Positions 48,357 to 59,553 of a stretch of 64,000 nt of DNA are shown piece by piece. Under the pieces are notes generated by a model, which worked only from the letters and a program-made list of their open reading frames with translations, searched no databases and had not been told where the DNA came from. Source of the stretch: Candidatus Omnitrophota bacterium (GTDB taxonomy: Bacteria; Omnitrophota; Gorgyraeia; Gygaellales; Profunditerraquicolaceae). Within the stretch, counting starts at the first letter, position 1, and every line of letters begins with the position of its first letter. The stretch lies in NCBI GenBank assembly GCA_028712255.1, contig JAQTQJ010000002.1, positions 86,846 to 150,845 on the forward strand. Reading direction: 5' to 3'. Both the position numbers and the translations under genes were made by a program.

Positions 48357-49337
48357 ATGAAGAAAGAAGCTAGCTTTATTATTGGAATATTCCTGGTTTT
48401 GGTGGTTAGCGGCTGCGTTCAACAACCGAAAAAGCTAACAAAGGTTAATATTGCCTTCCAGTCTTGGGTAGGCTATGGCCCATTTTATCTGGGGCAGGAA
48501 AAAGGATTCTTTAAGGATGAAGGAATAGATTTAATCTTTGTGGATGAACAGTCGGATGGTGGCCGTAGGGATGCCTTTAAAGCCGGCATGCTTGATTGCG
48601 AGGCTGGGACAATTGATTTGTTGGTTTCTAAAAAATCCCAAGATACGCCAATCGTAGCGGTTCTGGAAATTGACCGTTCTTTTGGCGGCGATGCCGTAGT
48701 AGTAAATAAGGAGATTAAAAACCTGGAAGATCTAATTGGGAAAAAGATAGTTTTTTCTCGAGATAATGTCGGAGAGGCATTCATCGCGTATCTTTTTTAT
48801 AAAAACGGATTATCTCTTAAGGATATTACCATTGTTTCCTGTAGCCCCGAGGATGTAGCCTCCTCTTTTTTAAACGAAGATGCGGTTGCGGTAGTTACTT
48901 GGGAGCCATGGGTTTCTAAAGCCTTGAGCAAGCCGGGTGCTTATATTTTGATTTCTAGCAAAGAAGCCCCGGGTATAATTATAGATACTCTTAATGTCAG
49001 GGAACAGTTAGTGAAAAATAATCCTGAACTGGTTAAGGCTTTGATGCGGGCGTGGTTTAGGTCTGTAGGCTATTACAAAAAACATCCTGAGGAAGCAAAT
49101 CGAATTATCGCCAAGTATTTTAATATTAGTCCTGAAGCCTACAGTAGAAGCGTTAATAGTTTGAGATGGACTGAATATAAAGAACAGATTAATTTTGGAA
49201 AATCCGGGAAATGGCAGGAGGCATTTGATATAATTACCAAGATCAAATTTGAGAACGGCAGGATTACTAAAAAGCCAGAAGCAAATAGTTCCATAAACAC
49301 TATGTTAATTCAACAAATCTATGAAAATAGCCAATAA
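48357..49337 (+). CDS. ABC-type (NMT1/SsuA/TauA-like) periplasmic substrate-binding lipoprotein
   Basis: lipobox LVVSGC; NMT1-like fold; start at ATG 48357. Confidence 0.6.
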   Translation: MKKEASFIIGIFLVLVVSGCVQQPKKLTKVNIAFQSWVGYGPFYLGQEKGFFKDEGIDLIFVDEQSDGGRRDAFKAGMLDCEAGTIDLLVSKKSQDTPIVAVLEIDRSFGGDAVVVNKEIKNLEDLIGKKIVFSRDNVGEAFIAYLFYKNGLSLKDITIVSCSPEDVASSFLNEDAVAVVTWEPWVSKALSKPGAYILISSKEAPGIIIDTLNVREQLVKNNPELVKALMRAWFRSVGYYKKHPEEANRIIAKYFNISPEAYSRSVNSLRWTEYKEQINFGKSGKWQEAFDIITKIKFENGRITKKPEANSSINTMLIQQIYENSQ

Positions 49338-58138: not shown

Positions 58139-59553
58139 TGGTTATGAATATACCGATCATAAAGATTACTTATTTTATTTTTATTTTTTTCTTCGGTTAC
58201 TTTCTACTTCTTCTGGTTTTTTACTTGTTCCTGGCGTTTCTTAGTTTTATTGAAGGAAAAAAAAGGTCGTGGGAGAGTCAGACAGAAGATTATCCTTTGG
58301 TTTACCTAGCTAGTAACGCCATATCTGTAAGTATTATTATGCCGGCCAGGAATGAAGAAGGGTGGATAGCCGATGCTTTATTGTCTGTTCTCAACCTTAA
58401 CTATCCTAAATTTGAAGTCATTATCGTTGATGACGGCTCTAAGGATAAAACCTTAGAGACAGTGGATAAGATTTTGAAATTAGAGCTTCTGGATATACCG
58501 TATATAAAACATTATAAAGATGGTGTTGTGCTAAAGGTATTTAAGAGCTTAAAATATCCTTTTGTTACAGTGATAAGCAAGGATGCGGGCATGAAGAAAG
58601 CCGGGGCGGTTAATGCCGGGCTCAATTTCGCCAGGAATGAATATGTGTGTTTTGTTGACGCTGATACTGTGCTTGAGCAGGATGCGTTACTGAAAGTAAT
58701 GGCCTACGTTGACCGGGATCCGGATAAGATTATAGGGATTGGCAGTTACTTTGGGCTTTCTAATGACCTTAAAATAAAAGAGGGGAGAATTTTAGATAGG
58801 CATTTTTCCTTTAACCCGTTAATAGCTTATCAGAACCTGGAATATATCCGTTCTTTTATAGGTAATCGTATCGGCTGGAGTAAGTATAATGCCATGCCGG
58901 TTGTGGCAGGGGGATTTAGCATGTGGCGCAGGGACATTTTGTATGAATTAGGCGGTTTCTCGGCGGATTTTACCTGTGAAGATATCGAGTTTACTTTTCG
59001 CGCCCATGATTATTTAGTGAAGAACAAGGATAAGGATTATAGGATAGTTATGTTGCCGTATTCGGTTGGATGGACCGAAGGGCCAGCCAACATAACTTCT
59101 ATTATCTCGCAGCGTAGCCGTTGGCAGAGGGTTACGGATGAAACTGTGGCACGCTATAAATATATGATCCTTAATCCGCGTTTTGGCGCCTTCGCATTTA
59201 TTACTCTTCCCTATTTTCTACTTTATGAAGTTTTCGGAGTTTTTTTTGAGGTTGCAAGTATTTTTTTTGTTGGTTTAGGGTGGGCGCTGGGTGCGTTGGA
59301 TTTAAGGGTTTTTATTTTATTTACTTTGTTTATGTCTTTGACTCAGGCATTCATCTCTATCTTTTCCATATTTTCGTCCATACGTATTCAAAGGCTGTTC
59401 CCATTGCGTTATATAATGTATCTCATATTCCTTAGCCTTACTGAGTTTTTGTGGTATAGGTGGATAATTTCCGCTGCAAGGTTATTAGGGACCTATACTT
59501 TTTTAAGAGGGGTAAAAGAGTTTGATCAATATAAGAGGGTTAGGAGGGCGTAG
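58135..59553 (+). CDS. processive family-2 glycosyltransferase (PgaC/cellulose-synthase-like) with flanking TM helices
   Basis: IVDDGSKD, FVDADT, Q-R-S-R-W motif QRSRWQRV. Confidence 0.8.
   Translation: MMVMNIPIIKITYFIFIFFFGYFLLLLVFYLFLAFLSFIEGKKRSWESQTEDYPLVYLASNAISVSIIMPARNEEGWIADALLSVLNLNYPKFEVIIVDDGSKDKTLETVDKILKLELLDIPYIKHYKDGVVLKVFKSLKYPFVTVISKDAGMKKAGAVNAGLNFARNEYVCFVDADTVLEQDALLKVMAYVDRDPDKIIGIGSYFGLSNDLKIKEGRILDRHFSFNPLIAYQNLEYIRSFIGNRIGWSKYNAMPVVAGGFSMWRRDILYELGGFSADFTCEDIEFTFRAHDYLVKNKDKDYRIVMLPYSVGWTEGPANITSIISQRSRWQRVTDETVARYKYMILNPRFGAFAFITLPYFLLYEVFGVFFEVASIFFVGLGWALGALDLRVFILFTLFMSLTQAFISIFSIFSSIRIQRLFPLRYIMYLIFLSLTEFLWYRWIISAARLLGTYTFLRGVKEFDQYKRVRRA

Follow-up and report, generated by a model that had tools for sequence, protein, structure and literature searches.

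A 64,000-nucleotide stretch of contig JAQTQJ010000002.1 from the Candidatus Omnitrophota bacterium assembly GCA_028712255.1 (positions 86,846 to 150,845, referred to here in full as the window) contains a gene cluster in which a sensor histidine kinase, a series of receiver (REC) proteins and two receiver-type domains fused to nucleotide-sugar proteins lie directly upstream of an outer-membrane barrel, a HEAT-repeat protein and a glycosyltransferase family 2 (GT2) synthase. It spans window positions 48330-59553 and consists of twelve plus-strand open-reading frames in one tightly packed unit, with positions as in the original prediction, an earlier reading made from the letters alone. Neighbouring frames overlap or are separated by 0-15 nt, the sole exception being a 144-nt gap before 52522. 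The end of an SsuA/NMT1-like gene overlaps the kinase start by 17 nt and this gene is part of the unit, whilst the REC1 start overlaps the kinase stop by 4 nt and the REC4 end overlaps the barrel gene by 4 nt. A terminator-like hairpin at 48250-48265 follows the preceding cupin gene, and none separates the GT2 stop from a pilin gene starting 206 nt later, the next strong one being found after that first pilin gene at 60183-60219. Counts in the promoter and terminator scan were not above those in shuffles, and just the positions of these two hairpins are suggestive. The features of the unit are as follows.

48330-49337, plus strand: substrate-binding protein, periplasmic or lipoprotein, NMT1/SsuA-like (PF09084, 105.6 bits; N-terminal hydrophobic segment), a possible co-sensor for the kinase
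49321-51606, plus strand: sensor histidine kinase, transmembrane (TM) helix, periplasmic dCache, TM helix, HAMP, PAS, HisKA (H537) and HATPase (Pfam/NCBIfam)
51603-52001, plus strand: stand-alone receiver REC1, 132 aa (PF00072, 94.8 bits)
52006-52377, plus strand: stand-alone receiver REC2, 123 aa (PF00072, 90.4 bits)
52522-52902, plus strand: stand-alone receiver REC3, 126 aa (PF00072, 105.3 bits)
52912-53265, plus strand: pseudo-receiver domain of the YvcK fusion, residues 1-118, (beta-alpha)5 CheY fold
53266-54237, plus strand: YvcK/GlmR (CofD-like) domain of the same 441-aa fusion, residues 119-441 (TIGR01826, CofD)
54240-54614, plus strand: canonical receiver domain of the 460-aa short-chain dehydrogenase/reductase (SDR) fusion (PF00072, 103.8 bits)
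54639-55622, plus strand: extended SDR nucleotide-sugar enzyme of the same 460-aa fusion (PF01370, PF16363)
55638-56021, plus strand: stand-alone receiver REC4, 127 aa (PF00072, 102.6 bits)
56018-56851, plus strand: outer-membrane beta-barrel, 277 aa, borderline YaiO (about 14 strands, signal peptide, C-terminal Phe)
56852-58138, plus strand: HEAT-repeat protein with one N-terminal TM helix (PF13646, HEAT_2, 54.7 bits)
58135-59553, plus strand: membrane-embedded GT2 synthase of processive type (PF00535, 104 bits; QRSRW326)

Pfam and NCBIfam assignment bore out the Cache-HAMP-PAS histidine kinase of the original prediction together with all of its further domain calls, some of them carried in public annotation as 'YvcK', 'GDP-mannose 4,6-dehydratase' or 'hypothetical protein'; its seven receiver-containing proteins, by our count, are six (four stand-alone, one YvcK-fused and one SDR-fused). 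A Pfam scan of 48330-59553 returned no DNA-binding (helix-turn-helix), Hpt, PilZ or GGDEF domain, in agreement with the earlier statement that the cluster has no DNA-binding output. Two candidate modes of control were rejected on the same Pfam evidence: cyclic di-GMP (c-di-GMP) control, as no PilZ, GGDEF or EAL domain is present in the cluster, and a phosphorelay, as the cluster has neither an Hpt domain nor a hybrid kinase.

The kinase matches dCache_1, HAMP, PAS, HisKA and HATPase_c in Pfam with E-values from 1e-11 to 3e-30, has TM helices at residues 3-21 and 288-306, places H537 within the H-box SHELRTP, and has no receiver or Hpt domain of its own. The substrate-binding protein at its 5' side scores 120.9 bits on TIGR01728, below the cut-off, and its gene is not kept beside the kinase in relatives. 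Five canonical receivers, REC1-4 and the N-terminal domain of the SDR fusion, reach 90.4-105.3 bits on PF00072 (Response_reg, gathering cut-off 30.2 bits) and each has the complete DD/D/T/K set when aligned to CheY; the four bare receivers first noted at 51603, 52006, 52522 and 55638 are thus secure (90-105 bits). REC2 and REC3 are paralogues with 50% identity, and the gene just before the YvcK fusion encodes a receiver of this type in the window, in the related P0003 contig and at loci L002, L006, L009 and L014. REC4 belongs to a distinct family with the signature ITAFSNEERF...NASGFIVKT and an intact active site in eight orthologs (L001, L005, L081 and L084-L088), each time accompanied by the barrel, HEAT and GT2 genes.

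The fusion at 54240-55622 matches Response_reg at 103.8 bits and Epimerase and GDP_Man_Dehyd at 175-184 bits (PF01370 at 175), so the original call of a bona fide receiver joined to an extended SDR stands. The receiver active site (D10-D11, D54, T84 and K106) is conserved position by position in 94-100% of 84 fused sequences. Like UXS1, ArnA and the bacterial UDP-xylose and UDP-4-keto-pentose synthases, the enzyme part has the extended SDR fold and the motifs GGAGFIG (GxxGxxG), STSEVYG (Thr/Glu) and YACSK (YxxxK), which are invariant in the 84 fused and 34 shorter, unfused-length sequences, apart from two N-terminally truncated sequences in which the GxxGxxG region is missing. A Thr-Ser-Glu motif is typical of SDR decarboxylases and dehydratases, not of simple 4-epimerases. 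The best PDB matches are 8vr2 (unnamed; 2e-50) and human UXS1, a UDP-glucuronate decarboxylase (2e-49), the latter at ~171 bits versus ~137-139 bits for PelX-type epimerases, with ArnA also scoring lower. Among NCBIfam models those of LegB, UXS and ArnA type match best, and the protein is under every curated equivalog cut-off (PRK11908 155 of 294 bits, ArnA 136 of 777, LegB 156 of 475). Judged by its Thr-Ser-Glu motif and best PDB matches, the enzyme appears closest to the UDP-glucuronate decarboxylases of UXS/ArnA type. It resembles PelX in being a dedicated SDR encoded in a synthase operon, but unlike UXS1, ArnA or PelX it bears an N-terminal receiver. A canonical receiver placed N-terminal to an enzyme with a short linker is also the arrangement of CheB (REC-methylesterase), PleD and WspR (REC-GGDEF), RpfG (REC-HD-GYP) and PorX (REC-phosphodiesterase), and a similar logic, phosphorylation-dependent relief of inhibition or dimerisation, would be expected here; in contrast to CheB, PleD, RpfG and PorX, the outputs at this locus act on central nucleotide-sugar metabolism, where those of the former act on chemoreceptors or signalling molecules. 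At 90% identity the full-length REC-SDR proteins fall into 83 clusters, almost all from Omnitrophota, and unfused SDR orthologs are ~60-86% identical across the SDR part. For example, L002 has neighbouring, independent genes for a receiver of 123 aa and an SDR of 329 aa, and the natural occurrence of both fused and split forms argues for a functional partnership between receiver and enzyme.

The second fusion, at 52912-54237, scores 265 bits on CofD and 295.6 bits on TIGR01826 (cut-off 196), which confirms the YvcK/CofD identity first proposed for it. Its first 118 residues reach 16.6 bits on Response_reg, under the 30.2-bit cut-off, and are confidently predicted to adopt the (beta-alpha)5 CheY fold. 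G9 and S10 sit where the DD pair would be, which makes this a pseudo-receiver (PsR) by the definition in PMC12632262, whilst D50, D52, S79 and K101-P102 are kept. Among 153 homologs of the domain the first DD position is Gly in 129 and the second is acidic in ~14%; D50 is kept in 138, Ser or Thr occupies position 79 in 145, Lys or Arg occupies position 101 in 135, and P102 is present in 149. An extra Asp two residues after D50 (D52; 139 of 153, 91%) gives an 'hhhhDxD' motif and may serve either in docking or as a metal ligand that has changed place. As Gly stands first in 129 of the 153, absence of the acidic pair is a family trait and not a private loss. The original prediction that the acidic pocket had been lost is thus right as to the missing DD pair, but the change is family-wide and the D, S/T and K positions and the D+2 Asp are conserved; its further suggestion of a phosphorylation-independent pseudo-receiver is plausible from the residues present, though not established. 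The domain shares with bacterial PsR domains (PMC12632262, PMC4395418) the loss of the second, directly metal-binding Asp of the DD pair, the commonest PsR defect, and an uncommon attached output, yet it is not aspartate-less, its Asp, Ser/Thr and Lys positions being conserved at 86-97% and the D+2 Asp at 91%. In a sister clade (L020-L028) the N-terminal domain scores 26-39 bits on PF00072, with four proteins above the cut-off (30.6-39 bits); no member has a full active site and the phospho-site position is D, E or T. In a phmmer search of 1.84 billion representatives, the isolated pseudo-receiver domain drew 35 weak matches, mostly fragments.

The YvcK part of this protein is like GlmR of Bacillus subtilis and Listeria monocytogenes (PMC7525490, PMC6171935, PMC10128056, PMC13046274) in its fold, its Asp pair, its UDP-GlcNAc Arg and the score of its C-terminal 320 residues above the YvcK cut-off. 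In an alignment to BH3568 (2o2z), window residues D153/D154 correspond to D38/D39 and R423 to R301, and D154 is invariant and R423 present in at least 90% of 114 YvcK-fusion sequences. D38/D39 are the catalytic pair and R301 the UDP-GlcNAc-binding Arg of B. subtilis GlmR (PMC13046274), an equivalence that holds if residue numbers are the same in Bacillus halodurans and B. subtilis. GlmR stimulates GlmS, an effect antagonised by UDP-GlcNAc (PMC7525490), and is also an accessory GlcNAc-1-P uridyltransferase (PMC10128056), so that the UDP-sugar-binding regulator originally invoked is, in the literature (these two papers and PMC13046274), a UDP-GlcNAc-binding regulator and enzyme. In Firmicutes GlmR undergoes Thr phosphorylation by PrkC, and a phospho-signalling input is thus a theme common to those proteins and the window fusion; the window protein has Ala where B. 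subtilis has the PrkC site T304. Characterised GlmRs all lack the N-terminal CheY-fold pseudo-receiver seen here. The window gene also lies outside the yvcJ(rapZ)-glmR-whiA context of Firmicutes and beside histidine kinases, receivers and polysaccharide genes, and the yvcJ(rapZ)-yvcK-whiA arrangement was found neither among the Pfam-scanned longer open-reading frames of the window nor in related loci.

Unfused forms of these enzymes exist (L002 encodes receiver and SDR separately, and L081 and L013 have an SDR alone), as they would if assembly or frameshift errors had joined separate receiver and enzyme genes in the window. This explanation has next to nothing to recommend it, since the same junctions recur in assemblies from NCBI, JGI, ENA and Logan, across the 83 REC-SDR clusters and no fewer than 114 clusters of full-length pseudo-receiver-YvcK proteins, both fusions have identical counterparts in NCBI on a 168-kb contig of a metagenome-assembled genome (MAG; P0001, P0121), and an AlphaFold2 model of the two-domain YvcK fusion has a predicted TM-score (pTM) of 0.91. 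The YvcK-fusion clusters were likewise defined at 90% identity, are 50-88% identical to the query and are almost all from Omnitrophota. Full-length recurrence of both fusions across many independent assemblies rules out an assembly join, the check that had been proposed for the junctions, and the fusions are genuine.

Downstream of the fusions lies the synthase module. The GT2 protein has the motifs DDGS99, DAD175, CED281 and QRSRW326, which are also present in its orthologs, TM helices at residues 2-41 and 353-416 flanking the GT-A domain, and no PilZ domain; with D, DxD, (T/C)ED, QxxRW and the flanking helices it has the features of a processive membrane synthase. Its best curated-model match is PgaC_IcaA (TIGR03937; 100.2 bits versus a cut-off of 422.3), and it is weakly similar to BcsA, with an alignment spanning residues 22-351, and to hyaluronan synthase. 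The HEAT protein carries its TM helix at residues 15-33, and in eight orthologs the N-terminus conserves a pattern of MYNYH, the helix and then a Lys/Arg cluster. As this cluster follows the helix, the positive-inside rule predicts a cytoplasmic HEAT domain. A role for the protein as a periplasmic TPR-like scaffold was rejected on the same conserved topology, which comes from a rule and not from a measurement. The barrel has ~14 strands over residues 50-276 and its best structural matches are 14-strand uptake channels (CymA/OmpG-like). On the YaiO models it scores 17.2 bits for PF19413 (cut-off 23.9) and 27 for TIGR04390 (cut-off 32), and comparison of a barrel-family profile with E. coli YaiO gave no significant match. 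The family contains 105 sequences, of which ~20 have a precomputed PF19413 match, and all given source names are Omnitrophota.

The order YvcK fusion, fused SDR, REC4, barrel, HEAT and GT2 is kept in the window, at L001 (62% identity), L084 (64%) and L085 (62%), and in the P0003 contig (84%). L081 (56%) has the same genes with an unfused SDR and a REC4-type receiver placed after GT2, whilst in L005 the six genes are permuted to REC-barrel-HEAT-GT2-YvcK-SDR. An exact-sequence search with the YvcK fusion of the window matched no contig, and its genomic contexts were taken from homologs; three further loci, retrieved with the barrel as query, show smaller sets: a small PAS kinase followed by a REC4-type receiver, barrel, HEAT and GT2 without YvcK or SDR (L086), REC-barrel-HEAT-GT2 alone (L087), and REC-SDR-REC-barrel-HEAT-GT2 (L088). 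All of the related clusters examined contain REC4, barrel, HEAT and GT2 as a set, with the SDR (fused or not) and the pseudo-receiver-YvcK often added upstream. The kinase itself varies, being a dCache protein here and PAS-rich proteins of 1041-1053 aa elsewhere. The locus is therefore a set of nested modules: a REC4-barrel-HEAT-GT2 core, enzymes often added upstream, and kinases and extra receivers that come and go. The kinase-plus-receivers cluster of the original prediction is real, but among relatives the kinase and REC1-3 vary as accessories and are not part of the core; the link to the adjacent synthase module is upheld, although the four-gene core had not been singled out, and the functional link between the fused enzymes and barrel-HEAT-GT2 is backed by both conserved and permuted synteny.

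Beyond the GT2 gene the plus strand carries type IV pilin/pseudopilin-like genes (N_methyl motif) and a 655-aa TPR protein (59760-60167, 60294-62261 and 62297-63499). Because pilin-like genes at 59760-60167 and 62297-62740 and the TPR gene at 60294-62261 come after GT2, and stand-alone receivers commonly regulate pili and flagella, the receivers could be imagined to serve a motility, pilus or other behavioural circuit tied to these genes, with the enzymes merely co-transcribed. We consider this highly improbable, since relatives have other genes downstream (an Mrp-type antiporter in L084, L085 and L088, thioredoxin and pta-ackA in L081, unrelated genes in L086 and L087), a 206-nt gap and a promoter-like site (from the scan that was not above shuffles) separate GT2 from the pilin gene, and REC4 always accompanies the synthase. 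A pilus link was rejected on the finding that the pilin genes are not syntenic in relatives.

We read the locus as a synthase-dependent system for an envelope polysaccharide or exopolysaccharide (EPS), controlled post-translationally by two-component phosphotransfer and with its UDP-sugar supply enzymes placed on the same signal, an interpretation to which we give a probability of roughly 55%. Phosphorylation would then probably switch polymer production directly and not via gene expression. The comparison with the Pga/Ica poly-N-acetylglucosamine (PNAG), Bcs cellulose, Pel and alginate systems (classified in PMC7112194 and PMC8461298) supplies both likenesses and differences. As in those systems, there is an inner-membrane processive GT2, an outer-membrane barrel in the same operon and an accessory inner-membrane subunit, and post-translational gating of activity would be expected. 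Unlike them, the window cluster lacks both a periplasmic TPR scaffold and a c-di-GMP receptor of the PilZ, PgaD, PelD or Alg44 kind, its barrel is a 277-aa, ~14-strand CymA/OmpG-like protein where theirs is a 16-18-strand porin, a HEAT protein with a predicted cytoplasmic location acts as its accessory subunit, and a stand-alone receiver stands in the regulator slot. A looser parallel is the uncharacterised yaiS-yaiP-yaiX-yaiO cluster of E. coli K-12, where an outer-membrane protein (YaiO) is likewise co-directional with a GT2 (YaiP, 27% identical to the window GT2, E 7e-14), the other members being a putative deacetylase gene and an acyltransferase pseudogene; it differs in having no receivers, HEAT protein, SDR or YvcK.

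Several observations weigh against this reading. No kinase lies in the immediate neighbourhood of L084, L085, L087 or L088, so the partner kinase is not fixed, and a UDP-glucose dehydrogenase was not found among the ~60 longer window open-reading frames scanned. On the synthase side, GT2 falls far under the PgaC family cut-off, YaiO membership of the barrel is sub-threshold, and the barrel is neither of the 16-strand PgaA/BcsC/PelB type nor, by the standard of EPS porins (the C-terminal barrels of PgaA, BcsC and PelB, and AlgE), a 16-18-strand barrel coupled to a periplasmic TPR domain, the conserved module as a whole having no such scaffold. The module might instead make another envelope glycan, for instance a lipid-linked one, a glucan of the periplasm or an oligomer resembling chitin, with the barrel as a generic substrate channel of CymA/OmpG/FadL type; the likeness of the barrel to 14-strand uptake channels and not to EPS porins, the missing TPR scaffold, the GT2 scores far under every curated family cut-off and the presence of BacA after GT2 in L087 would all suit this. 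We regard it as unlikely, given the BcsA alignment and the presence of all of D, DxD, (T/C)ED and QxxRW between TM helices, the translational coupling of the barrel gene to REC4 and to HEAT-GT2 with strict co-inheritance, and the similar clustering of E. coli yaiO with a GT2 gene and a putative deacetylase gene.

On the YvcK side, N-extended YvcK was found at 34 species-level loci, mostly Omnitrophota with a few MAGs labelled otherwise, and further points against our reading arise here. A same-family GT2 lies within ~9 kb in 9 of the 34, and within the same distance a stand-alone receiver is found in 8 and the SDR in 5. The gene also occurs beside hexokinase, phosphofructokinase (PFK), WecB (UDP-GlcNAc 2-epimerase), glmS and Wza-like genes, and elsewhere its neighbours are a kinase alone, carB-purF-glmS-guaA, or a GT2-radical-SAM protein. 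These contexts, in which a housekeeping role fits at least as well as an EPS-specific one, tell against the YvcK fusion being an EPS-dedicated paralogue. Moreover, within the set of 80 species-level loci retained, each Omnitrophota YvcK match has the N-extension and each listed genome has one such match, which makes the N-extended protein look like the general GlmR of the phylum. The neighbourhood could accordingly be a mosaic, in which the pseudo-receiver-YvcK is a housekeeping GlmR for peptidoglycan and UDP-GlcNAc homeostasis with its own kinase, adjacent through shared UDP-sugar use and without any gating of EPS. In addition to the phylum-wide extension and the central sugar-metabolism neighbours (hexokinase, PFK, WecB and glmS), this explanation can draw on the kinase-YvcK or kinase-REC-YvcK arrangements without GT2 at many loci (L009, L014, L082) and on the absence of YvcK from the minimal synthase module in L086, L087 and L088. 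We find it rather doubtful, because in relatives at 56-84% identity the YvcK fusion immediately neighbours the SDR and synthase module and points the same way, the association outlasts both permutation of gene order (L005) and a change of synthase type (L002), and N-extended YvcK adjoins GT2-REC-HEAT genes in Myxococcota too. The two readings are compatible, as a housekeeping GlmR could have been recruited into the operon.

Two of these loci merit description. At L002 (6373-11217, plus strand) a REC-TackOD1-GGDEF protein, an HlyD-like protein, a GT21-like GT2 and a TolC-like OEP lie directly downstream of kinase-REC-YvcK-REC-SDR; this synthase and export set is of a different type, apparently with c-di-GMP input, and attachment to it indicates that the YvcK and SDR pair behaves as a portable precursor module. 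At L019 (9165-18257, minus strand), in a Kofleriaceae MAG (Myxococcota) of 70% GC, N-extended YvcK adjoins an operon of GT2 (30% identical to the window GT2), REC, a 1201-aa HEAT protein, TPR, and a protein with glycoside hydrolase-like (GH-like) and CE4 deacetylase parts. L030 (4078-9670, minus strand), from a high-GC Myxococcota MAG, is similar, and the giant HEAT proteins of the two loci are 1201-1410 aa long with 14 HEAT_2 stretches. The trio of GT2, receiver and HEAT is therefore not confined to Omnitrophota, and these loci look like a second-phylum version of the same theme; the CE4 deacetylase of L019 hints at a GlcNAc polymer, as in Pga. As a separate observation, L082 (7113-17201, plus strand), from a further Omnitrophota genome, places kinase-YvcK before carB, purF, a GlmS-like GATase+SIS gene, guaA and purL, a proximity of GlmR to GlmS which may or may not be meaningful.

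If phosphotransfer does gate polysaccharide synthesis here, the following course of events can be proposed. A periplasmic signal would alter kinase activity, and phosphoryl groups would pass from the kinase to the five canonical receivers. Phospho-REC4 would bind HEAT or the cytoplasmic face of GT2 and turn polymerisation on, filling the role that PilZ, PgaD or PelD has with c-di-GMP in known systems (PMC8461298, PMC7112194). Phosphorylation of the SDR receiver would alter the oligomeric state or activity of the SDR and with it the nucleotide-sugar pool, whilst the GlmR pseudo-receiver, not ordinarily phosphorylated, would contact the kinase or the upstream REC2/3-type receiver and tune UDP-GlcNAc supply. 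REC1-3 may double as branch points or phosphate sinks. GlcNAc is probably a constituent of the polymer, to judge from the GlmR link, the PgaC-like best match of GT2 and the CE4 deacetylase of the Myxococcota counterpart. More tentatively, the locus may represent an undescribed synthase class of Omnitrophota, with a related form in some Myxococcota, in which docking of a stand-alone phospho-receiver on a cytoplasmic HEAT protein, and not c-di-GMP, is the on-switch and the same signal feeds the receiver-SDR and the pseudo-receiver-GlmR within a membrane-tethered metabolon. In such a metabolon the pseudo-receiver would pair with a phosphorylated partner receiver or with the kinase; if the conserved D-x-D forms a relocated metal site, the domain would be an atypically phosphorylatable receiver. 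Enzyme-fused receivers, pseudo-receivers, GlmR and synthase-dependent EPS systems are each known separately, and we found no literature description of a pseudo-receiver-GlmR, a receiver-SDR, or a receiver combined with a 14-strand barrel, a cytoplasmic HEAT protein and GT2.

Elsewhere in the window, a 743-aa protein encoded at 6319-8550 (plus strand) combines a GT20 trehalose-6-phosphate synthase domain (residues 274-740, 413 bits) with a ~270-aa N-terminal extension that gives weak, sub-threshold matches to Cache/CHASE8-type sensors, and may be another direct sensor-to-enzyme fusion in this genome. It belongs to a trehalose island (trehalose phosphatase, DUF5752 and a TreT-like GT4) near MscS and CBS genes, with neighbours at 2079-3131, 9183-9566, 9573-10379, 10382-11050 and 11055-12269. 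A CE4 polysaccharide deacetylase gene (252 aa), with a PMT_2/ArnT-like GT39 membrane glycosyltransferase gene immediately after it, occupies 34421-36821 (plus strand), ~15 kb upstream of the cluster. At 44004-44327 (plus strand) a 107-aa GIY-YIG open-reading frame sits between lipoate-protein ligase-like and lipoyl synthase genes, and in L088 another GIY-YIG frame (12648-12938) breaks up the Mrp antiporter genes that follow the cluster there; both may be mobile nuclease genes. Nearly all genes across positions 1-64000 are on the plus strand, just two Pfam-scanned frames being on the minus strand: an IS481-like transposase (helix-turn-helix and rve; 14610-15545) and a 467-aa frame at 17312-18715 with no Pfam match. 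GC is 34-42% and GC skew is positive in each 2-kb bin, and the monotonic rise of the cumulative skew is consistent with the leading strand of a single replichore.

The fused and split versions found here offer a testable case for how a pseudo-receiver that has no DD pair and retains D, T and K works, the mechanisms of bacterial pseudo-receivers having been called 'a mystery' in a 2025 review (PMC12632262). If our reading is true, a phosphotransfer-gated type would be added to the synthase-dependent polysaccharide systems, the known members of which are almost entirely c-di-GMP-controlled at the post-translational level, and the fusions would be natural examples of receivers controlling central nucleotide-sugar enzymes. 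It would equally mean a new regulatory input for GlmR/YvcK, wired to two-component signalling across a whole phylum, at a time when Ser/Thr phosphorylation, acetylation and UDP-GlcNAc are being actively studied as regulators of GlmR in Firmicutes. Since the Omnitrophota have not been cultivated, are often ultra-small and may be associated with hosts, a signal-gated surface polymer would be relevant to their attachment biology.

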